A DNA stretch of 64,000 bases from Nitrosomonadales bacterium (lineage in GTDB: Bacteria > Pseudomonadota > Gammaproteobacteria > Burkholderiales > Gallionellaceae), in assembly GCA_025350915.1 (NCBI GenBank), contig JANXWX010000034.1:8677-72676 (forward strand). The letters run 5' to 3'. The notes beneath the pieces are model-generated. The model was not told the origin of the DNA and made no database searches. It was given only the letters and a program-made list of their open reading frames with translations. Of the stretch, positions 5,589-15,943 are shown piece by piece. How positions within the stretch are numbered: the first letter of the stretch is position 1; the number at the start of each line of letters is the position of its first letter. Made by a program: the position numbers and the translations under genes.

Positions 5589-5816
5589 TACGGTTTCCTT
5601 TAAGTGTGCACAATACCCTGTTAGTTGTCAGTACAGTGACTTTTTAAGTCGGTAAAATCGATAGTAGTGAATGGCTGTTTTTCGGTGCGGACACACGCTC
5701 CTTCATTTCGGAAGGGCCGCTTTCTAAGTATTCCCGCCTTTCGTCCTACGATGCTCCCCGCCTTAAAACAGACCTTGGAACTGTGATATCACTTCGCGCA
5801 CAAGAACCAAATCGAT

Positions 5817-6527
5817 TTAAGAAAAGCCTTCAACAATATAAGTTGCGCCAAGTGAATTTGCCCATACTTGATCGAGTAAGGAGCGCGACGATGTGCTGGC
5901 TTTGTCATGCAGAGCATTCAAGAATGGAATGATACAAAGTTTCTGGCTTGCAATTATGGGAGCATTCCATCCAGGAGAATTCTTTAATTCTGCCCAATCT
6001 TCTGGGTAAAAATTTGCTACCACCACCTCACAAAGCAACACAACATCCAAAGGAAAATACAACCATCTTGGTTCTTTAATTGGCACTTCAAAAGTCTTGG
6101 TGTACCCAGGTGTATGCCCCCCAAATTGTAGGTGGAAGAGCGGGCCTTCCTGAAATTGATTCTTTGGGGAATTTGCGAAATCAATATGATGCTTGATTAA
6201 GACATTACCTTCGTCATCCAATACCTCCAATGCAAGATCAAGACGTTTAAAACAGACACCTCCTGCAGGGCTTCGATGGACACTGATGGAGGCATATATC
6301 TGTGGCTGAATAGTCTTATTTAAATGTCGATCATGTTTGCGCTTGAATACAATAGGATTAGATTTTGAAATTTCATATGACCATATGAATTTCTCTTTCG
6401 CATTAGCAACAGTGATTCTGGCTAATTCCTCAAAAACGTTCCCAGCCTCAATGATCTTCTTTTGATGAAGTGCCCGACCAGTCTGTCGAAGCGCATCTGC
6501 CATTTCTTTAGCAGTTGGGACACTCAT
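5817..6527 (-). CDS. hypothetical protein, last gene of the methyltransferase/GHKL-kinase operon
   Basis: 236-aa ORF. Its ATG overlaps the stop of the upstream gene (ATGA at 6524-6527). I recognise no motif. It has no TM segment and no signal peptide. Confidence 0.7.
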   Translation of the reverse strand: MSVPTAKEMADALRQTGRALHQKKIIEAGNVFEELARITVANAKEKFIWSYEISKSNPIVFKRKHDRHLNKTIQPQIYASISVHRSPAGGVCFKRLDLALEVLDDEGNVLIKHHIDFANSPKNQFQEGPLFHLQFGGHTPGYTKTFEVPIKEPRWLYFPLDVVLLCEVVVANFYPEDWAELKNSPGWNAPIIASQKLCIIPFLNALHDKASTSSRSLLDQVWANSLGATYIVEGFS

Positions 6528-7690
6528 GATGGCATCTGAGTTTGCGGTTGAATTTTTCCGTTCCTGATTTTTTCAGCCAGACTTTCATCGGAATCATCGA
6601 TAACCAAATCACGGCTTTCATAGGCACCGGTCTGAATACAGTACCAGCAAATTCTTGATGGCTCCAAGAAAGGTTGATAGTTGGCATCGTAGCCCAAAAC
6701 AGAATGTTTCAGCTCGGTGGGGTGATCGCAACTTGAACAGGCAACCCAGAAATATTCATCTGAAGATTTACTCCACTTGGATATAGCAGGCTTTAGCTCG
6801 ATCTGTAGTGCATTCGATAGCTTCGCGACCCTTTCAGAACCTGCCAACGAGCCTAATGACGCACCCAAAGTTTCTTTGCTCCATGCATCTAGCCGATGCC
6901 ACCACCAGCGCGGCCACCCCTCACATAACAGACCGCTATAGCCTAGTTTAAAATCAAACAGCTTGGCTTTAAGCTGGGGAATATTGGGAGAGTCTGGAGA
7001 TACACCAAGCCTCGCCAATAAATGCTCATCAGACAATAGGATGCCGGGGCGCCGAATCAACAACGCCATTACCTTCGCGACGATTTGATGGGGGTATTGG
7101 ATTTTAGCGATGGCACGTATTGCTTGATGATTTAACACCATCTCAGCCTCATGCGAATCCAGCTCAAGATGGATATTTGGCGCAACGGGATTATTATTGT
7201 TCTTGGTATAACTGGCATGAATAGTTTTATAAGCTGTCGCCATACTTGCTATACGACTGGCTGCCAGCGCTAACGGCTGCGGAGAGACGAGCTCTTCTTT
7301 CGATATAACAAGATCAAAAAGATCTTCTGCCGTCAAGTCAGCATGAAAAATACGTTTTATATAATCTTCTTGTGAAAGCAGAATAAGCGGCAAGTCACAG
7401 TTCGGTTGGTCAATAGCACGGTCACGTATCTGTTGAGCTAAAGCGCTTGCACGATATTTATTTTTTTGCCCCCCACCTTCAGCATCCTTGATCGGTACTT
7501 CGTCAAGACGAAAGTCAATTGCGGCAAAGTCGTAATGTTGATCTATTAAATGACCCGCAAGTTCGGTCACTTCATGTTCGGGTAGGCGAAATTCGATATT
7601 CAGCTGGCCACTTGAGTTGTTGGTAAGCAACTCGGCATATTTCTTTTCCTCTTCCTTGTCATCAATAAAAACACCTTTAAACAAGATCAC
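6524..7690 (-). CDS. receiver (REC)-like domain protein with C-terminal CxxC...CxxC zinc-ribbon / possible His-Me finger
   Basis: 388-aa ORF. The N-terminus has VFIDD (D10 D11), AAIDFRL (D59), PLILLSQ (S106) and DLVISKEE (K131), matching CheY-like positions. The C-terminus has CEGWPRWWWHRLDAW and C318-SS-C-DH..N337..C348-WY-C351. The track start is GTG at 7690. TTG at 7684 has better spacing to the AGGAGG box at 7689-7694. Confidence 0.7.
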   Translation of the reverse strand: MILFKGVFIDDKEEEKKYAELLTNNSSGQLNIEFRLPEHEVTELAGHLIDQHYDFAAIDFRLDEVPIKDAEGGGQKNKYRASALAQQIRDRAIDQPNCDLPLILLSQEDYIKRIFHADLTAEDLFDLVISKEELVSPQPLALAASRIASMATAYKTIHASYTKNNNNPVAPNIHLELDSHEAEMVLNHQAIRAIAKIQYPHQIVAKVMALLIRRPGILLSDEHLLARLGVSPDSPNIPQLKAKLFDFKLGYSGLLCEGWPRWWWHRLDAWSKETLGASLGSLAGSERVAKLSNALQIELKPAISKWSKSSDEYFWVACSSCDHPTELKHSVLGYDANYQPFLEPSRICWYCIQTGAYESRDLVIDDSDESLAEKIRNGKIQPQTQMPS

Positions 7691-7694
7691 CTCC

Positions 7695-9989
7695 TTATTG
7701 TTGTGCTTTTGCAGCTGGGACTAAGAAATCAAATCGACAATTAAATCCCTGCTCGGTATCTCCAAGGCGAACATGCCCACTATTGGCGCTTGCGATATCA
7801 GAAACGATCTTCAATCCCAACCCAGAACCGGGGCCAACTAATTCATCATCGCCATATTGGTGCGTTGTAAAAAAAGCATCGAATATCTTATCCGCAATCG
7901 CTGGATCAACACCCGTTCCAGTATCCTGAAAACCGATACGGACAAACTCGCCTTCACGATCTGCGCTGATTTTAATTTTTCTATTGCCAGTATTGGCACG
8001 ATCCATTGCCTTGATTGAATTTGTGAGGAAATTGAATAACACAGAATCAATTTCGCTCCGATGCATAGAAGTAGTGCGAAGATAAGGCGGGTCAATAGTT
8101 ACCTCAAACTCAACCTGCCTCGTATCAAGATAGTGTTTGAATTGGGATACGAATTCGGTAATTACGCTGTGAATGGCGATCTCATTTTTTTCACGCTTGG
8201 CTGTATGGGCTATCAGGCTCATCACATAGGAGGCCAAATCATTAAGCTGACTAAGGCTCGCTTCTACGTCATCAATGGGCTTCTTGGCTTTATCCTTTGC
8301 GCCGAGGTCGGTCAGCAATCCTTTCAAATTCAGGATGCTGCCGCTGAAACCATTCAGCGCCCCGCGTATTTCATGACTGAATACGGCTATCGAGGTACCC
8401 AATGAAGCCAGGATTCGCAACAACTCCTCATAACGTAGATGCACTTTTTCGCGTTGTTCCTGTTCCTGCTCAAAACTTTCAACGATCTTCTGAACTTCCT
8501 CTTGAGCGTCTTTCAGCACATCAACTGGTACAGCGTTTCCCCCCGAAGAGCCACTTTGTATTGATGTGGCCGACACGTCTTCAAATATCTTTTTTACACG
8601 TTCGGAAGGTTTGCCGCGCTTAGAAGTAAAATCTTTTTGACCTGCTGTCTGTTTTCTTTCGCGAGCAGCCGCAACGCGCATAGCTGCCCACTCAAGTCCA
8701 CCTCTGACAAAATCGGCAAGTTGTGCAAATGCTTCATTTTCAATCAGGCCTTCTCGACTGCTGGTTTCTTCGAGAAGCACGTTCTCATCGCTTGCTAGTT
8801 CGACTTGCCCAAAAAAATTGTTATTGCTCGCAGGAATTAGCAGGCTTCTACGGCCAGTGTCATATGCAAGGCGAAGCCAATCATCGCGAGGCTCACCATA
8901 AGGAAGAACGCGGAAGCCATCACGATACAAGCGAATTCCCCCATATTCAGCACCAACGTCCTGTGCCGTCCTGCTTGAAAATCCTTCGATTAGCTCTGAG
9001 GAATAAATAAAGTAATCTGCCTCGAAGGTTGAAACACCCACCAGATCAAAGTTGCGATCTAGCGTTATTTGATCTGTAAACCCAAGTCTTTTTGATTCGA
9101 GCAGAATGTGCGCATGGCCATCTTTGTCAATATGCCCACTGATCCGAGCTAACCTTTGATCAAGGAAAGTTTTATCGAGAGAGAATTCCATTCTGACTTC
9201 ATCAGAATTTTTCCCATTGATAACTACTGAGAAGCCTGGGTCAGGCTCTACCCCCTTATTTTTAACTAGTGCTTTACCTCGATACGTTCGCCTGACCTTA
9301 TATGGTGGCTGGAGCAGAATGACGGATTTCCACACGCGCTTCAATTGAGCTTCTGTCCATCTGTCACGCATCGTAACAATGGTTAATTTCGTTCCGTGCG
9401 CCTCTGGTGGCTTATCAAAGCGTTCAACTGAAAACGTCAGCATGCCTATATCTACATCAGGCTTAAACACATCGTCCCAGTTGAATTGCACGCGTACACC
9501 TTGGGTCTCGCCGATCACACCTGACTCAAGAATCAGTTCTTTTCCAAGACGTTCAACCGCAAACCGCCCAATGCCTTTGCGCCCAGCTCGTGAACGCTTA
9601 AACCTATCGGAGATTGGGGATAGCTCCTTGTCATTGGTCGAAAGCCGCATCCATGAGCTACGTATTGTTTCCTCAGTCATTCCCGAGCCGTCGTCAGCAA
9701 TGGTGAGAACCCCGCCAGGTTTATCAAACGCAACGAAATCGATTCTTACTTCTGTAGCATCCGCATCGTAGGCGTTCTTAATTAGTTCACTGAGAGCGGT
9801 TTCTTGGCGACCGACGAGTTCAAAGCCTAGGCGATGAATATGCCGCGCATCGATTGAAAATCGTACTGAGCTTTTATCACATTCAAGTATTTTTTTATTG
9901 AGCTCCGCAATAGCCTGAAAATCGACATGCTCCTGCTCAAGCTCTATTGAAAGCTGCTTTTTAAGCGTGTTAAGAAGATCAGATTTCAT
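7695..9989 (-). CDS. dual GHKL protein: MORC/HSP90-like ATPase N-terminus fused to histidine-kinase transmitter
   Basis: 764-aa ORF. The N-terminal Bergerat fold has SELIKNAYDADATEV (N box), IADDGSGM (G1) and GRKGIGRFAVERLG (G2). The C-terminal transmitter has the H box VFSHEIRGALNG (His539), N box LFNFLTNSIKAM, G1 QDTGTGV, F box IFDAFFTT and G2 GPGSGLGLKIV. No TM segments. Confidence 0.85.
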   Translation of the reverse strand: MKSDLLNTLKKQLSIELEQEHVDFQAIAELNKKILECDKSSVRFSIDARHIHRLGFELVGRQETALSELIKNAYDADATEVRIDFVAFDKPGGVLTIADDGSGMTEETIRSSWMRLSTNDKELSPISDRFKRSRAGRKGIGRFAVERLGKELILESGVIGETQGVRVQFNWDDVFKPDVDIGMLTFSVERFDKPPEAHGTKLTIVTMRDRWTEAQLKRVWKSVILLQPPYKVRRTYRGKALVKNKGVEPDPGFSVVINGKNSDEVRMEFSLDKTFLDQRLARISGHIDKDGHAHILLESKRLGFTDQITLDRNFDLVGVSTFEADYFIYSSELIEGFSSRTAQDVGAEYGGIRLYRDGFRVLPYGEPRDDWLRLAYDTGRRSLLIPASNNNFFGQVELASDENVLLEETSSREGLIENEAFAQLADFVRGGLEWAAMRVAAARERKQTAGQKDFTSKRGKPSERVKKIFEDVSATSIQSGSSGGNAVPVDVLKDAQEEVQKIVESFEQEQEQREKVHLRYEELLRILASLGTSIAVFSHEIRGALNGFSGSILNLKGLLTDLGAKDKAKKPIDDVEASLSQLNDLASYVMSLIAHTAKREKNEIAIHSVITEFVSQFKHYLDTRQVEFEVTIDPPYLRTTSMHRSEIDSVLFNFLTNSIKAMDRANTGNRKIKISADREGEFVRIGFQDTGTGVDPAIADKIFDAFFTTHQYGDDELVGPGSGLGLKIVSDIASANSGHVRLGDTEQGFNCRFDFLVPAAKAQQ

Positions 9990-11703
9990 CGCGTAAGCGC
10001 CTTCTCCGATTCCTTACGATTTCTAATTCTCTGGCCAATGCGAAAATTAGTTGTTCATGGACAGATTTTTTTCTATTCCCAAAAATAAACATGTTAGCAA
10101 CTTGCTGCGCCCCCTCGGAATCACCTTTACGGAAACATGCGTCAATTTGTGAAAAGGCAGCATCAGTCTGCTCAACTGTCTTATCTTTTGGGAGGATGAG
10201 CCTTAATCTGTTTGCCTCGGATGGCTCAATTTTCAGGACTCCAGAACCATAACTCCGGCCTACATACTCAGCGGATAGCTGGCTAAAAGTAGAACACAGA
10301 GAGATAACTAACTGTTTCCTTGTTTGTTGTAATACAGATGGATTAAAAAATACTCGATGAATAGAATTCGTCGCATTGATTGCGGCATTGTTCAGCACCA
10401 TTCTCGGTCCATCGTGCATCATGTAAGAGAAGAAAGCATCAGGGATACGCCCATCATCGGCTCTCAACCAATCTTTTCGGCGGCGAAATGTACTGTTTTG
10501 TAGGCGCTCATTTTCTGGAAACGTTGCCGCATAACGCACCGCTGCATGTGACATCCTCTTGTCAGGTCGATGAAATAATAGATAGGGTTTGTCCTGAGAT
10601 TTCCAATCTTCAATATCCATTTCGTTGATCTGTGTGCCTTGGATATACGCGAATTTTGAAAGAATGGGCTTAAGGTTACGTTCACCAAGATGGTGAAGTT
10701 TGGCGCGGCTTGGTGACATGATGAAGAATCGATTTGCGCCAGTCACAGTGCCTATCAATACCTTGCACAGATCGCCCAGTCTCACTGCGTCTGTGCTGTC
10801 GGCCAAGGTGTCGTAGATACTTGTTTCATCCAGAGCAGTATGCAATTGCTTCAGAGCGATTGGCTTATCCAGAGATGAACTAACTTGGCTTTTGGTAGCT
10901 ATCACACTATCTAGTTGATCCGCCGATGTACAGTGGCTAATTTGAATGCCCTTAGATGACCCACCAAAGCCAGAACACAGCAGAATTACTGTACGCTCTT
11001 CCACTCCGTCCGATAGAAACATTCTTTCGGTTAGCTGAATAGCGATAACCTCATCAAAGCTAGCGGCAATATCCTCGCGCAAGCTTGTCGCATAATCCGC
11101 TTCCAAAAAACTCCCAGGGAGCACCCATGCCATCCTGCCGCCGGGCATAAGGAAGGACATGGCATGCAATACGAAATAAGCCCATAAGCTAGCTCTGCCG
11201 TTAATTTTAATTCCTGTTTCTTCTTTCCATGCCTGAACTGAAGCCTTCTGGTTCGCAGACATGTTGTGTAGGGAGACGTAAGGTGGATTTCCTATGACTA
11301 CATCAAATGCTTGCGCAGAAAAGCTTTGTGGGGATACCGCAACAAAATCAGAAAGTACGTAACGGCGCTCAATACTCAAAATACCGAGCTTTTCAAAAAG
11401 ATATGCGAATGCTTGTGGGTCGATATCACAACCATAAAGTTGATTCTTGGGGGATGGGCTACCCAGTTCAGATAGCCTATCTACCGCCGCCTGAAGAAAG
11501 CCACAACCGCCAAACCCAGGCTCTAATACATGCTCATTACGTGAGCGAATTGCCCACTTGGCAAGAAGTGAAGCAAGGACACTTGGAGTGTAATATGCAC
11601 CCAACTCCCTTTGGGTAAGAGGTTGGCTAGAAGGATCGCTTTGTGCTGTAGTCGGCATTACATCAAAACCAGCAGTAGACGTTGCAGTAGTGTTCCTAAC
11701 CAT
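9979..11703 (-). CDS. N6-adenine DNA methyltransferase, gamma class (Eco57I/TaqI-like with C-terminal target-recognition domain)
   Basis: 574-aa ORF. GAYYTPSVLASLL, AdoMet motif I VLEPGFGGCGFL and motif IV VIGNPPYVS occur in gamma-class order. The C-terminal LGDLCKVLIGTVTGANRFFI resembles the TaqI-type specificity domain. Its stop overlaps the next gene by 11 nt. Confidence 0.85.
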   Translation of the reverse strand: MVRNTTATSTAGFDVMPTTAQSDPSSQPLTQRELGAYYTPSVLASLLAKWAIRSRNEHVLEPGFGGCGFLQAAVDRLSELGSPSPKNQLYGCDIDPQAFAYLFEKLGILSIERRYVLSDFVAVSPQSFSAQAFDVVIGNPPYVSLHNMSANQKASVQAWKEETGIKINGRASLWAYFVLHAMSFLMPGGRMAWVLPGSFLEADYATSLREDIAASFDEVIAIQLTERMFLSDGVEERTVILLCSGFGGSSKGIQISHCTSADQLDSVIATKSQVSSSLDKPIALKQLHTALDETSIYDTLADSTDAVRLGDLCKVLIGTVTGANRFFIMSPSRAKLHHLGERNLKPILSKFAYIQGTQINEMDIEDWKSQDKPYLLFHRPDKRMSHAAVRYAATFPENERLQNSTFRRRKDWLRADDGRIPDAFFSYMMHDGPRMVLNNAAINATNSIHRVFFNPSVLQQTRKQLVISLCSTFSQLSAEYVGRSYGSGVLKIEPSEANRLRLILPKDKTVEQTDAAFSQIDACFRKGDSEGAQQVANMFIFGNRKKSVHEQLIFALARELEIVRNRRRRLRDEI

Positions 11704-11722
11704 ATAGCCTAACTTTTAGTAA

Positions 11723-11751
11723 ATTATATACGTGACCAACTTAATTGGCAC
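11723..11751 (-). promoter_or_regulatory. candidate sigma70 promoter for the four-gene operon
   Basis: On the minus strand, GTGCCA (-35, 4/6) is followed by a 17-nt spacer and TATAAT (-10, 6/6). It ends about 19 nt before the methyltransferase ATG. That leaves a very short leader and a weak RBS, so it is tentative. Confidence 0.3.
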
Positions 11752-12074
11752 GCCAGCAGACGCTTTAAGCTGTAAATAAACAAAGACATCGTAACGTCTC
11801 TATTATTGACTAGCTATTTTCTTTGCGGGGAATCCTAACAGATTTCAGCGCATGAGTGGCATTGATAAGTAGTTATACCGCTCCAGCTTGATTTCTGATG
11901 CACGTGTAGGTCGTGAATTGAACCGAAGCGGACTTCCAAAGTATAGGGGCATATGCCCGCTTTGGCCGAGTAGTGGACATTGATGTTAGTTGAGCACCGA
12001 GTGTTGCCTAGTAGCCGCATACATAAAGTGAGTATTATGAATAGATTTGGCATATTAGTAATGCTGCTGATCTT

Positions 12075-12443
12075 CTAATATTTCAACATGTTTATGGTGA
12101 CATCTTTTTGATCGAGATCCCAAGCGCCGGGCGAGAATACACCAATGATAGGAACGATGAATATCATTGAGCCGATAAAATCAGCAATGCCTGTCGGACT
12201 TATTGAATAAGAAACTGATTTTTGTGCTGGGTAAAACCCTTGTTTGTAACAGGCGTAGGAGAAAACCTTGTCTCGACGTGCTTCAACGGTAGCCTGGCCC
12301 GTATAAGACTCGCCACCATTGATTTGCAGCGTTGCATCAGGCTCCGAGCAGGCTGCTTTTACCATTTCTGTTTTAGGCACAAAGGCGGAGCATCCTGAAG
12401 TGAAGATGCTGGCGGCCAAGATGACCGAAATAATTTTTTTCAT
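12075..12443 (-). CDS. small lipoprotein, function unknown
   Basis: 122-aa ORF. It has a signal peptide with the lipobox MKKIISVILAASIFTSG-C and a hydrophobic segment near the C-terminus. Confidence 0.6.
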   Translation of the reverse strand: MKKIISVILAASIFTSGCSAFVPKTEMVKAACSEPDATLQINGGESYTGQATVEARRDKVFSYACYKQGFYPAQKSVSYSISPTGIADFIGSMIFIVPIIGVFSPGAWDLDQKDVTINMLKY

Positions 12444-12540
12444 GTAGTGCTGTCCTTGACTATTAAGTGCGCTGCTTCCTGGTGTCTATAACAATATGGG
12501 GTAATACCCATCATAAATTATGTAACTCTTCAAATACCAC

Positions 12541-12840
12541 TTAAAAGAAATCTTCTTCCCGTTGGTGTCGCACAGCTAGTACGGTTACTGTCCGGTTATC
12601 CTCGATTTCAAATAAGGCAACATAACCGTTTGCGCCAAAACTGATAATTAATTCACGCAGCAAGGGATGTTCCGGTGATACCTTGCGGCAACTGAATGGA
12701 AAAGTACGCAGGAATTCAATGCCTTTTGCAATAGCAGAGCGGGCACGCTTGGCGGCCTTTAAATCACGTTCCGCGAGAAAATCAAACAAGTGTTGCAGAT
12801 CTTTCGCTGCCGCAGGCGTAAATCGAACTGTGTAGTTCAC
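12541..12840 (-). CDS. type II toxin-antitoxin system RelE/ParE family toxin
   Basis: 99-aa ORF. It begins FTPAAAKDLQHLFDFL and ends with the core LRELIISFGANGYVALFEIEDNRTVTVLAVRHQREEDF, typical of ParE-like toxins. It overlaps the upstream antitoxin gene by 4 nt. Confidence 0.85.
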   Translation of the reverse strand: MNYTVRFTPAAAKDLQHLFDFLAERDLKAAKRARSAIAKGIEFLRTFPFSCRKVSPEHPLLRELIISFGANGYVALFEIEDNRTVTVLAVRHQREEDFF

Positions 12841-13124
12841 TTGCGGGAAAGTGCCTTGCCTGATTTCACTATCGTTTTATCCAGACTGGTTAGCATTTCT
12901 TCTGCTGAAATATATTTTCCAGTTAGGCGCGCCTCATCTCTGGCAGCTAAACCGCGTGCAATAAATTCTTTCTGCATCGCTCGTCGTTGAATATTGAATT
13001 GGACTGACTCCAGCAAAAAACCGGAAAGGGTTTCGCCTTCTATCAGGGCGGCCTCGGCAGCATCGCGTACCTTTTCGCTTACTCGCAACGAAGGGAACGT
13101 GGAAGTTTTGATCATTGTTTTCAT
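12837..13124 (-). CDS. ribbon-helix-helix (ParD/CopG-like) antitoxin
   Basis: 95-aa ORF directly upstream of, and overlapping, the ParE-like toxin. The N-terminal FPSLRVSEKVRDAAEAAL..GETLSGFLLESV fits an RHH DNA-binding fold. AAGGAG RBS precedes the ATG. Confidence 0.72.
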   Translation of the reverse strand: MKTMIKTSTFPSLRVSEKVRDAAEAALIEGETLSGFLLESVQFNIQRRAMQKEFIARGLAARDEARLTGKYISAEEMLTSLDKTIVKSGKALSRK

Positions 13125-13192: not shown

Positions 13193-15943
13193 TTAGTGAG
13201 CTGCTTCCCAGTTAGCGCCCATCCCTAGACCGACTTCCAGTGGCACTTTTAGTTCGGCTACATGACACATTAAATCCGGTAATTTTTCTTTCACTAAAGC
13301 CAACTCCTTATCCGGTACTTCTAGCACCAGTTCGTCATGCACCTGCATGATTAATCGTGTTTGCAGCTGTTCTTTCTCAATCCAGTTCTGCACCGCCACC
13401 ATCGCCAGCTTGATCAGGTCAGCCGCCGTGCCTTGCATCGGGGCGTTGATCGCAGCGCGTTCGGCAGCCTGGCGGCGCATGCCGTTGCCGCCGTTGATTT
13501 CGGGCAGCCACAGGCGGCGGCCGAATACGGTTTCGACGTAGCCTTGCTGCTTGGCAGTATCACGTGTGGTTTGCATGTAGTTCGCCACACCGGGGTAGCG
13601 GGCGAAGTAGCGTTCGATATAGGCCTGTGCCGCGCTGCGCTCGATGCCGAGCTGGCTGGCGAGGCCGAACGCGGACATGCCGTAGATCAAACCGAAGTTG
13701 ATTACCTTGGCATAGCGGCGCTGTTCGTTGCTGACCGCCTCCGGCTCGGCCGCAAAGATCTCGGCGGCGGTGGTGCGGTGCACGTCGAGGCCGTGGGCGA
13801 AGGCATGCAACAGGCCTGTATCACTCGATAGATGCGCCATGATGCGTAGCTCGATTTGTGAATAGTCGGCGGACACGATATGGCTGCCGGGGTCGGCGAT
13901 AAACGCTTCGCGGATGCGGCGGCCTTCGGCGGTGCGCACCGGGATGTTTTGCAGGTTGGGGTCATTGGAGGCGAGGCGTCCGGTAATCGCCACGGCCTGT
14001 GCGTAGTTGGTATGCACCCGGCCGGTTTGCTGATTGACCATCAACGGCAATTTATCGGTGTAGGTGGATTTGAGCTTCGCCATGCCGCGATATTCGAGTA
14101 ATAATTTTGGCAGCGGATAGTCCAGGGCCAGTTCTTGCAGTACTTCTTCGTCGGTGGAGCGCGAGCCGGTTGCGGTTTTTTTCTTCGACGGAATGCCGAG
14201 TTTGTCGAATAATATTTCCTGTAGTTGCTTGGGTGAAGCGAGGTTGAAGGGCTGGCCAGCTAGCTCGTAGGCCTGTGTTTCAAGCGTAAGCAACTTCTCA
14301 CCCAGCTCGCGACTTTGTTCGTTGAGCAGCTTGCTGTCGAGCAGCACGCCATTGCGTTCCATCACAAATAGCACTTGCCGTGCTGGCATTTCAATATCGC
14401 GATAAACACGTTCAAGTTTTCCTTGCGCCTTGAGTTGCGGCAACAGAGTTTGGTGCAATTGCAGGGTGATGTCGACATCCTCGGCGGAATATTGTGTGGC
14501 TTTGTCGAGCTCAACCTGATCAAAGCCGATTTGTTTGGCGCCCTTGCCTGCCACCTCTTCAAAGGTGATGGTCTTGAGGCCAAGGTGGCGCATCGCGAGG
14601 TCATCCATATTGTGCGTGCGATGGCTTTCCAGCACGTAGGATTGCAGCAGCGTGTCTTCGGCAATACCTGCCAGCTTGATGCCGTGGTTGGCAAAAATAT
14701 GTTGGTCGTATTTCAAGTTTTGCCCAAGCTTTTTATGCGATGTGCTTTCCAGCCACGGCTTGAGTTTTTGCAGGACGTGTTCGCGGTTTAATTGCGCGGG
14801 TGCGCCGGAATAGTGATGGGCCACGGGAATATAGATCGCGTGGTGCGCCTCGATCGCGATTGAGATGCCCACCAGTTGAGAAGTCATACTATCGAGTCCG
14901 GTGGTTTCGGTATCCACGCACACCAGTTCAGCCTGCAAAATTTTTGCGAGCCAAGTGTCGAGTTGCGCGTCGGTCAGGATGCATTCATAACGTGTGGCGG
15001 GTGCAACGACCTCACCACTGCTGGCATCGAACATGCTGCCCTGTTGCGGGGAGGCGCTGGGTTCTTGTTTGGCTGCATGAGCGGAATTGGCAACAGGTGC
15101 GGGCAGTACATCGCGTAGCAGGGTTTTAAAGCCAAAGCCCTGTAACAACGTGCGCAAATTTTCGCTATCCTGCGGCGGGGCAACCAGTTCATCAAAATGT
15201 ACCGGTAGCGGCACATCGCATTTCACGGTGATCAACTTGCGCCCCATCGGCAACCATTCCAGCGCACTGCGCAGATTTTCACCCACGGCACCACTTACTT
15301 CGTCGGCATGGGTGATCAGGTTATCCAGCGTGCCATACTGGTTGAGCCATTTTACGGCGGTCTTGGGTCCGCATTTGTTGACACCGGGCACGTTGTCGAC
15401 CGTGTCACCGACGAGTGTAAGGTAATCTACGATGCGCTCAGGTGGCACGCCAAATTTGGCGAGCACACCGGCCTCATCGAGTGTTTCATTGCTCATGGTG
15501 TTGATTAGTGTCACCTGGCTGTTCACCAGCTGCGCGAGATCTTTATCGCCGGTTGAAATGACACAGCGGCTCCCGCCTTGGGTGGCCTGCTGTGCCAGCG
15601 TACCGAGTACATCATCCGCCTCTACGCCATCTATCATCAGGATATTCCAGCCGAAAGCGGCAATGGCTTTGTGCAGGGGCTCTATCTGTGCGGCAAGCTC
15701 CGGCGGCATCGAGGGACGATGGGCTTTGTATTCGGGGTACCAGTCGTCGCGGAAGGTTTTTCCCTTGGCATCAAATACGCACGCGCTATAATCCGACGGG
15801 TAATCGGCACGCAGCCGGCGCAGCATATTGAGCACACCCTGTATGGCCCCGGTCGGTTCGCCGGTGGGGCTGCGCAAATCTGGCATCGCATGAAATGCGC
15901 GATACAGGTAAGATGAACCATCTACTAATAACAATGTTTTCAT
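13193..15943 (-). CDS. polA: DNA polymerase I
   Basis: 916-aa ORF. The 5'-nuclease N-terminus reads LLVDGSSYLYRAFHA. The 3'-5' exonuclease has VCVDTETTGLD. The polymerase motifs are DYSQIELRIMAH, RRYAKVINFGLIYG and QVHDELVLEV. Confidence 0.97.
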   Translation of the reverse strand: MKTLLLVDGSSYLYRAFHAMPDLRSPTGEPTGAIQGVLNMLRRLRADYPSDYSACVFDAKGKTFRDDWYPEYKAHRPSMPPELAAQIEPLHKAIAAFGWNILMIDGVEADDVLGTLAQQATQGGSRCVISTGDKDLAQLVNSQVTLINTMSNETLDEAGVLAKFGVPPERIVDYLTLVGDTVDNVPGVNKCGPKTAVKWLNQYGTLDNLITHADEVSGAVGENLRSALEWLPMGRKLITVKCDVPLPVHFDELVAPPQDSENLRTLLQGFGFKTLLRDVLPAPVANSAHAAKQEPSASPQQGSMFDASSGEVVAPATRYECILTDAQLDTWLAKILQAELVCVDTETTGLDSMTSQLVGISIAIEAHHAIYIPVAHHYSGAPAQLNREHVLQKLKPWLESTSHKKLGQNLKYDQHIFANHGIKLAGIAEDTLLQSYVLESHRTHNMDDLAMRHLGLKTITFEEVAGKGAKQIGFDQVELDKATQYSAEDVDITLQLHQTLLPQLKAQGKLERVYRDIEMPARQVLFVMERNGVLLDSKLLNEQSRELGEKLLTLETQAYELAGQPFNLASPKQLQEILFDKLGIPSKKKTATGSRSTDEEVLQELALDYPLPKLLLEYRGMAKLKSTYTDKLPLMVNQQTGRVHTNYAQAVAITGRLASNDPNLQNIPVRTAEGRRIREAFIADPGSHIVSADYSQIELRIMAHLSSDTGLLHAFAHGLDVHRTTAAEIFAAEPEAVSNEQRRYAKVINFGLIYGMSAFGLASQLGIERSAAQAYIERYFARYPGVANYMQTTRDTAKQQGYVETVFGRRLWLPEINGGNGMRRQAAERAAINAPMQGTAADLIKLAMVAVQNWIEKEQLQTRLIMQVHDELVLEVPDKELALVKEKLPDLMCHVAELKVPLEVGLGMGANWEAAH

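Follow-up and report, generated by a model that had tools for sequence, protein, structure and literature searches.

A receiver-like protein as the probable phospho-acceptor of a predicted mobile methyltransferase–kinase cassette in a Gallionellaceae bacterium

A predicted phosphotransfer cassette

The stretch of DNA analysed here (64,000 nucleotides (nt), referred to as the window) covers positions 8,677 to 72,676 of the forward strand of contig JANXWX010000034.1 (assembly GCA_025350915.1), from a Nitrosomonadales bacterium of the family Gallionellaceae. At window positions 6524–7690, the minus strand carries a gene with a GTG start codon for a receiver-like protein of 388 amino acids (aa). 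It is the third of four co-directional genes, which encode, in order, a DNA methyltransferase, a histidine kinase, the receiver-like protein and a 236-aa protein termed P4. It is proposed that the 388-aa protein serves as phospho-acceptor, in the manner of a response regulator, within a self-contained predicted mobile cassette, in which a kinase–receiver phosphorelay would act on an output by P4 and the receiver C-terminus would be non-catalytic. A probability of roughly 0.6 is assigned to this explanation.

The four genes are closely packed. The methyltransferase and kinase genes overlap by 11 nt, the kinase and receiver genes are separated by 4 nt, and the ATG start codon of P4 overlaps the receiver stop codon (ATGA). 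A first-pass annotation had read the 388-aa protein as a CheY-like receiver fused to a possible zinc-stabilised nuclease. The open reading frame (ORF) was confirmed and, with coordinates recomputed from the frame, all of the listed motif strings were found at the residues given, the Cys element from C318 to C351 corresponding to nt 6638–6739. The evidence described below supports the receiver half of that annotation and argues against the nuclease half.

A large family of unannotated proteins

The 388-aa protein has 36 close homologues (30–90% identity), of which the closest (85–86% identity) come from Gallionellaceae metagenome-assembled genomes (MAGs). When 1.84 billion cluster representatives were searched with a profile, E ≤ 1e-3 gave 916 relatives, a count of at least 916 clusters defined at 50% identity, and E ≤ 1e-30 gave 449. 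Nearly all family members are 360–390 aa long. Almost all of the homologues are named 'hypothetical protein', a single Burkholderia ambifaria entry being named 'response regulator', and precomputed Pfam labels are lacking from all of the database homologues. Neither as a single sequence nor as a profile did the window protein give a significant match in Pfam, NCBIfam, PADLOC, PHROGs or PDB sequences.

Two alignments were used to judge conservation. The closer one contains relatives 26–90% identical to the window protein and was also the basis for finding related loci; in the broader one, conservation was judged over 49 diverse members with 20–46% identity. Given a family of 916 members and the conservation of the pocket residues described below, the putative receiver motifs are beyond chance.

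The N-terminal receiver domain

An AlphaFold2 model of the receiver protein was built from 25 sequences, with a mean predicted local distance difference test score (pLDDT) of 87 and a predicted template modelling score (pTM) of 0.85. From this model, together with Foldseek, conservation and hhalign, it appears that residues 1–136 (positions 7283–7690, minus strand) form a CheY-like REC domain. Residues 4–136 are modelled as β1-α1-β2-α2-β3-[insert]-α3-β4-α4-β5, with strands at residues 4–9, 30–35, 55–59, 102–106 and 127–130 that alternate with helices, and are followed by a long α5 at residues 137–163. This topology is the (βα)5 flavodoxin-like fold of the REC superfamily. In the model, residues D10 and D11 directly follow β1, D59 (codon 7514–7516) lies at the end of β3, S106 at the end of β4 and K131 just past β5. 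The first-pass annotation had likened the strings VFIDD (D10, D11), AAIDFRL (D59), PLILLSQ (S106) and VISKEE (K131) to the CheY pocket, and both the predicted fold and conservation agree with this: D10, D59 and K131 are invariant in the 49 diverse relatives, while D11 and S106 are at least 90% conserved.

Comparison of the model with the PDB using Foldseek returned response-regulator or receiver structures for all of the top 50 matches. TM-scores normalised to isolated REC domains were 0.70–0.74, with a root-mean-square deviation (rmsd) of ~3.5 Å and 11–16% identity; whole-model matches were dominated by the REC domain. A profile-to-sequence hhalign comparison with E. coli CheY gave an E-value of 1.7e-4 and a probability of 49%, and placed CheY residues D12/D13, D57 and T87 in register with D10/D11, D59 and S106. 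Because the fold, the key residues and the weak but correctly registered sequence-profile evidence point the same way, the assignment of the modelled N-terminus as a genuine CheY-like receiver is supported.

The domain shares the (βα)5 fold and five pocket residues in canonical positions with canonical CheY-like REC domains (PF00072), but differs from them in its low identity, below the Pfam threshold, in an insert of ~20 residues after the acceptor Asp and in having no Lys-Pro after β5. It also has residues Q86 and R89 in α3, which are invariant in, and specific to, the receiver family. The insert (residues 60–80, between β3 and α3) is modelled with low confidence (pLDDT ~58) and contains DAEGGGQKNKY at residues 69–79. 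Its sequence is variable and ends in a conserved N-x-Y-[RK]-A...L-A-Q-x-x-R.

The partner kinase and methyltransferase

The cognate kinase (764 aa; positions 7695–9989, minus strand) was assigned from Pfam, NCBIfam and alignment, and is a soluble protein. Its N-terminus is a paraMORC-type GHKL ATPase (HATPase_c_3), with motifs KNAYDADA at residue 71, DDGSGM at residue 99 and GRKGIGRF at residue 136. Its C-terminus is a HATPase_c domain, and the histidine-kinase core (residues ~513–760) is matched by many NCBIfam kinase models. The H-box reads FSHEIRG and includes His539 (codon 8373–8375), and the N, G1 and G2 boxes are intact. In nine divergent orthologues, the ATP-binding motifs of both GHKL domains and the H-box F-x-H-E-x-R containing His539 are invariant, which bears out the earlier description of the upstream gene as a histidine kinase. 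Judged from their sequences, kinase and receiver are an intact predicted His–Asp phosphotransfer pair. Between the two GHKL domains, a middle domain (residues ~340–420) has no profile match and carries the invariant motifs GGxRxYRxGFRVxPYGE...DWLxL and TSSREGLxxN; it may be a MORC transducer (S5-like) domain.

A precedent for such a pair is found in Ambrosia of P. aeruginosa, which comprises the XRE regulator AbrR, the N6-methyltransferase AbrA, the HATPase/kinase AbrB, the REC protein AbrC and the HNH protein AbrD; every gene is needed for phage defence, and the AbrC mutation D60A abolishes defence (bioRxiv 10.1101/2025.09.30.679545). Ambrosia protein sequences were taken from Table S1 of that preprint. 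Residues 44–417 of the window kinase are 30% identical to residues 1–399 of AbrB (E 2e-35), and the two share the middle-domain motifs GGxRxYRxxFRVxPYG...DWL and REGL. The receiver profile aligns with AbrC such that D59 lies opposite D60 (probability 63%, E 6.9e-5), a score hardly better than that against CheY. Through the homology to AbrB and the D59–D60 alignment, the Ambrosia precedent supports the proposed phosphotransfer to the window receiver.

The first gene of the cassette (positions 9979–11703, minus strand) encodes an Eco57I-like N6-adenine DNA methyltransferase of 574 aa, with Pfam matches to N6_Mtase, Eco57I and M_Eco57I_C and a PADLOC MTase_II match at 1e-80. MADS was considered as an identity for the system and rejected: the methyltransferase matches mad2/MAD2 only weakly, and the MADS preprint describes an unrelated 8-gene system.

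The C-terminal half of the receiver protein

The REC domain is followed by a long α5/linker helix and a helical region (residues 137–250; positions 6941–7282, minus strand), delimited by AlphaFold2 secondary structure and charge analysis. Residues 166–250 are modelled as helical and are acidic across the family, with a median isoelectric point (pI) of 5.2. Within them, the modelled helix-strand-helix-helix segment at residues 200–246 could be winged-helix-like; its third helix is poorly conserved.

The hallmark of the receiver family is the GW-R-WW motif at residues 256–265. It lies within the Trp-rich motif CEGWPRWWWHRLDAW (residues 256–270; positions 6881–6925, minus strand), in which W259, R261 and W263 are at least 90% conserved family-wide. 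Past residue 154, only Y154, L218, G253, R287 and C318 are invariant across the family, and G216, G229, Y251, W259, R261, W263 and P324 are at least 90% conserved. No His, Asp or Glu past residue 154 is conserved family-wide among the 49 members.

Near the C-terminus, residues C318, C321, C348 and C351 (positions 6638–6739, minus strand) form a four-Cys finger that, from conservation and the AlphaFold2 model, is predicted to be a zinc site. In the model, the first CxxC lies in a β-hairpin (strands 314–317 and 324–326), and the second where strand 345–348 meets helix 349–354. All four Cys are at least 90% conserved in the closer alignment and are kept throughout the sub-branch to which the window protein belongs. 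C318 (codon 6737–6739, minus strand) is invariant family-wide, even where the other three Cys are missing. A larger sub-branch, which has lost three of the four Cys, reads FWT[IV]C......PLDPxDG......PWQ[DE]xxY[IV]S. The zinc-ribbon segment of the terminase gpA ATPase family (PF05876) matched 9 of 25 members weakly (E ~0.002–0.01). Two conserved CxxC knuckles ~25–30 residues apart, as in Cys4 zinc ribbons and treble clefs, are present in the window's sub-branch, and it was concluded that the element is a predicted structural Cys4 finger, zinc-ribbon or treble-clef-like, in one branch of the family.

The window protein does literally contain the pattern C318-x2-C321-D322-H323-P...N337...C348-x2-C351, which the first-pass annotation had taken as a possible zinc-stabilised His-Me finger or HNH nuclease, with a plain zinc ribbon as its fallback. 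Taken with a helix N-terminus, the predicted β-hairpin knuckle gives a treble clef, the geometry that underlies His-Me fingers, and the fourth gene of Ambrosia encodes an HNH nuclease with CxxC...DH...N...CxxC, so that an HNH domain would be expected somewhere in such systems. Conservation argues otherwise. The D322, H323 and N337 columns are unconserved even among relatives at 45–50% identity in the closer alignment, in which CDHP is replaced by CDRP, CGQP, CKQP, CNQP, CHQP, CNRP, CGRA, CSGP, CRQP or CCDG. In the broader alignment, the two positions past the CxxC in members of the zinc sub-branch read DH, NQ, NR, HK, HQ, KH, HY or GH, and also RN, DA, SH, DY, GR, LN or SA. At position 329, several members have Y, N or F in place of His, and neither alignment has a conserved His or Asn past the second CxxC.

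Further points concern the family as a whole. Three of the four Cys are missing in most of the receiver family, and the profiles HNH, HNH_2 and HNH_4 matched neither the window protein nor any of its relatives in the sets of 25 and 49, in a scan in which AbrD, as a positive control, matched PF01844. Moreover, DH lies ~15 residues past the first CxxC in true HNH domains (see AbrD), but immediately past it here. With the CxxC pairs kept and DH and N free to vary, the zinc-ribbon fallback is the better description of the element. The C-terminal module is thus best described, on balance and from sequence comparison, as a probable non-catalytic adaptor or binding domain that is Cys4-stabilised in the window's sub-branch.

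The fourth protein

P4 (236 aa; positions 5817–6527, minus strand) has an orphan fold. Its 49 homologues in the database are all unannotated. The AlphaFold2 model is of high confidence (pLDDT 90.7, pTM 0.89), and Foldseek gave no match for it at E < 0.03, the best E-values being 0.14 for the PDB and 0.036 for BFVD; the sequence, used singly or as a profile, likewise had no significant match in Pfam, NCBIfam, PADLOC, PHROGs or PDB sequences. Residues W49, H114-x-D116, P129, H132, G137, P153-R154, P159 and Q194 are kept in all cassettes, and position 167 is always acidic (E or D).

In the predicted structure, the His/Asp/His/acid set lies on a β-sheet. Because of this set, its strictly conserved position and its translational coupling to the receiver gene, P4 is the best candidate for the effector of the cassette. 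The receiver protein had earlier been cast as the missing nuclease of the operon; the 236-aa protein downstream is a more plausible candidate for such a role. P4 was also considered as the C-terminal nuclease part of BbrUII/HgiDII enzymes, and this identity was rejected as P4 has no NCBIfam match.

Distribution of the cassette

Gene order was compared in 32 loci on contigs that extended far enough (L001, L003, L005–L032, L034 and L035). These loci derive from Proteobacteria and Bacteroidota, often from mobile elements, and include receiver proteins only 24–30% identical to the window protein. A P4 homologue lies immediately downstream of the receiver gene in all 32 loci, and a kinase gene precedes the receiver gene in all except L017. 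In L017 (1–3364, a Parabeggiatoa MAG), no kinase gene was found upstream of the receiver and P4 genes, and the upstream 3.3 kb hold no ORF of at least 120 aa; decay of the locus or faulty assembly of the contig is the probable reason. An Eco57I-type methyltransferase gene adjoins the cassette in most loci, either directly upstream or convergent downstream.

The loci lie in otherwise unrelated neighbourhoods: they are found within a cobalamin operon, following dnaA-dnaN-gyrB, next to Tn7-like transposition genes or on an island with an integrase. Such settings suggest that the cassette is a mobile unit of the defence-island type. Some of the loci adjoin transposase, Tn7 or integrase genes.

Individual loci vary in their arrangement. 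In the alphaproteobacterial loci L019, L021, L023–L025, L028 and L030–L032, the methyltransferase gene is placed on the strand opposite to P4 and downstream of it, in convergent orientation. On a Hymenobacter plasmid (L035, NZ_CP014303.1, 3363–9946), the order is sensor histidine kinase, receiver-like protein, P4 homologue and N-6 DNA methylase, and RefSeq annotates both the receiver-like protein and the P4 homologue as hypothetical proteins. In a Thiotrichaceae MAG (L018, 1388–12089), the triad of kinase, receiver and P4 genes is flanked on one side by the gene for an Eco57I/MmeI-like methyltransferase of 1116 aa and on the other by that for a 1085-aa protein with PLD-nuclease and SNF2-helicase parts. 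This arrangement indicates that the triad can attach to larger restriction machineries.

Proposed mechanism and competing explanations

It is proposed that the MORC-like N-terminal ATPase of the soluble kinase would sense foreign or unmethylated DNA, or infection. The kinase would autophosphorylate His539 and pass the phosphoryl group to D59. Phosphorylation of D59 would then re-position the C-terminal module, comprising the long α5, the helical bundle, the GW-R-WW motif and the four-Cys finger, and the re-positioned module would switch on the output. The likeliest output would be binding and activation of the translationally coupled P4, with DNA binding less likely. Control of P4 at the protein level is favoured because of the strict receiver–P4 adjacency and coupling, the acidic helical region and the lack of a match to any DNA-binding profile.

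Several points weigh against this explanation. The output step of the mechanism is pure inference, and gene linkage is the ground on which a connection with DNA methylation status is assumed. Methylation by AbrA gives phage no protection in Ambrosia, and the authors of that study describe AbrC as a REC protein with a wHTH (winged helix-turn-helix) and favour a transcriptional output (bioRxiv 10.1101/2025.09.30.679545). The Pfam Response_reg profile (PF00072) did not match the window protein at E ≤ 10, and among the 49 relatives its best result was a single match at E 0.0069, below threshold; the REC assignment therefore rests on fold, key residues and weak profile–profile scores. For residues 137–388, no match came from Pfam, NCBIfam, PADLOC, PHROGs or PDB sequences, and no recognisable nuclease fold or HNH profile was found in P4.

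A more specific form of the phosphorelay explanation can be put forward tentatively. The cassette might represent a new type of phosphorylation-gated restriction, in which the MORC clamp-kinase would report unmodified invading DNA through His–Asp phosphotransfer and the receiver C-terminus would directly unleash P4, with the output domain and the effector as new families and control exerted at the protein level rather than through transcription. On that tentative footing, the C-terminal module would carry GW-R-WW, the invariant residues R287 and C318 and, in one branch, the Cys4 finger. Equally tentatively, P4, the fold of which is unseen in the PDB, could have an active site formed by H114, D116, H132 and E/D167.

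A serious rival, if a rather unlikely one, is that the 388-aa protein is a transcriptional response regulator, in which D59~P would let the winged-helix-like residues ~200–250, perhaps with the zinc finger, bind a promoter and induce the cassette on infection. The same model was proposed for AbrC, and Ambrosia reporters are induced on infection (bioRxiv 10.1101/2025.09.30.679545). The helix-strand-helix-helix segment modelled at residues 200–246 would suit such a role, and Foldseek matches include several full-length NarL/FixJ-type regulators with >200 aligned columns; these long alignments, however, have an rmsd of 10–16 Å, and the REC part alone superposes. Upstream of the methyltransferase start there is a promoter-like site with 10/12 consensus positions (positions 11723–11751, minus strand). 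It is weak evidence, and promoter-like sites in the region are no more numerous than expected from shuffled sequence. The family-wide acidity of the putative wHTH region and the poor conservation of its would-be recognition (third) helix also speak against DNA binding. No HTH profile matched any of the 49 members, and the hhalign alignment with AbrC covers the REC part alone. In addition, the protein would be a regulator encoded inside the tightly overlapping operon that it controls.

It is improbable that the REC-like domain is a pseudo-receiver, which would take no part in phosphotransfer and would act as a scaffold in a methyltransferase–GHKL–P4 complex. Many defence systems do reuse signalling folds as scaffolds, and the sub-threshold Pfam scores, the unusual 20-residue insert past the acceptor Asp and the missing Lys-Pro after β5 could be read in this way. 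Yet the five pocket residues are invariant or at least 90% conserved across a family that has diverged to ~22% identity, and in every orthologue checked the partner kinase retains the H-box His and an entire CA domain. Loss of defence in the AbrC D60A mutant of the related Ambrosia system (bioRxiv 10.1101/2025.09.30.679545) likewise favours phosphotransfer.

Weakest of all is the idea that the receiver domain gates a zinc-stabilised His-Me/HNH nuclease formed by the C-terminus, which is very unlikely because the module lacks the conserved His, Asp or Glu that a metal-dependent nuclease would need.

Genomic surroundings

The cassette lies inside a stretch of low GC content (positions ~5600–13100, 0.43–0.47, compared with ~0.55 in polA at 13193–15943), which looks like an inserted island; for the cassette region itself the GC content is 44–46%. 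A lipoprotein-like ORF is found in the same stretch at positions 12075–12443. Between the cassette and polA there is also a toxin–antitoxin-like pair (positions 12541–13124, minus strand), which consists of two small overlapping ORFs, for a YlcI/YnfO-family protein of 95 aa (E 2e-9) and a weak RelE/StbE-like protein of 99 aa (E 0.078).

Comparison with known systems

The window cassette resembles Ambrosia in its order of genes for an N6-methyltransferase, a HATPase_c_3 plus histidine kinase protein, a REC protein and a small fourth protein. The window receiver and AbrC also share the α3 motif Y-x-[AG]-x-x-L-A-x-x-[IL]-R. AbrC, however, is only 209 aa long, whereas the 388-aa window receiver has an unrelated 250-aa C-terminal module, and the REC parts alone align. 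AbrD is a Pfam HNH nuclease to which P4 is unrelated (hhalign probability 0.1%). AbrA and the window methyltransferase are 23% identical over 195 aa (E 1e-4) and belong to the same enzyme class, the latter having an Eco57I plus M_Eco57I_C architecture. No ORF for an AbrR-like XRE/HipB regulator was found upstream in the window. In the related locus L003, an HTH_3 gene precedes the kinase gene.

Pairs of a Response_reg_2 (PF19192) gene with a HEF_HK (PF19191) gene, linked to methyltransferases and derived from paraMORC, were described in silico by Bellieny-Rabelo et al. (2021, PMC8011034). The published kinase-like partner has a HATPase_c_3+HEF_HK+HATPase_c architecture (PMC8011034). The window cassette is similar in that a soluble kinase-like protein with HATPase_c_3, DHp and HATPase_c is encoded beside a divergent receiver-like protein with conserved DD/D/T/K residues, in the presence of adjacent DNA methyltransferases and with inferred paraMORC ancestry. 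The published pairs (PMC8011034) mostly accompany C5-cytosine methylases, Vsr and HNH_2, whereas the window cassette has an Eco57I-like N6-adenine methylase and, as its constant partner, the orphan 236-aa protein. PF19192 gave no match to 25 family members at E ≤ 1, to 49 members at E ≤ 0.01 or to the window protein at E ≤ 10, and PF19191 did not match the window kinase; neither profile matched any of the relatives.

In Detocs (DtcABC), a defensive two-component system, phage defence relies on a soluble kinase that passes a phosphoryl group from His to Asp on a protein combining receiver and effector. Detocs is not known to have a methyltransferase or a GHKL/MORC sensor, and the effector part, fused to the receiver, is a PNP nucleosidase.

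BbrUII/HgiDII type II restriction enzymes (NF050001) share the paraMORC-type GHKL ATPase with residues 43–215 of the window kinase (E 1.5e-20), which also has a PADLOC REase_II match at 1.3e-14. Only the first ~175 residues match, and the restriction C-terminus is replaced by a histidine-kinase module in the window kinase; neither the receiver protein nor P4 matches this family. In the DefensePredictor paper, mention of HATPase/REC is limited to a figure legend and gives no usable detail.

Taken together, these sequence comparisons place the window cassette as a sister lineage of Ambrosia and of the pairs described in silico, with the same predicted sensor-kinase chassis but another receiver output and another fourth gene. 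Earlier descriptions of two-component signalling in restriction-modification-like cassettes are limited to the in silico study (2021) and a single validated system, Ambrosia (2025 preprint). The sister lineage is widespread, with at least 916 clusters in Proteobacteria and Bacteroidota, on chromosomes, on transposons and on a plasmid. It pairs the same paraMORC-kinase with a longer, different receiver, and the HNH nuclease is replaced by a strictly co-inherited orphan-fold protein. For annotation, a tempting but wrong nuclease call is corrected, and two unannotated protein families are flagged, the receiver C-terminal module and the 236-aa protein. The sister lineage offers a natural comparison for two questions: what the kinase senses, and whether the receiver acts on transcription or directly on an effector.

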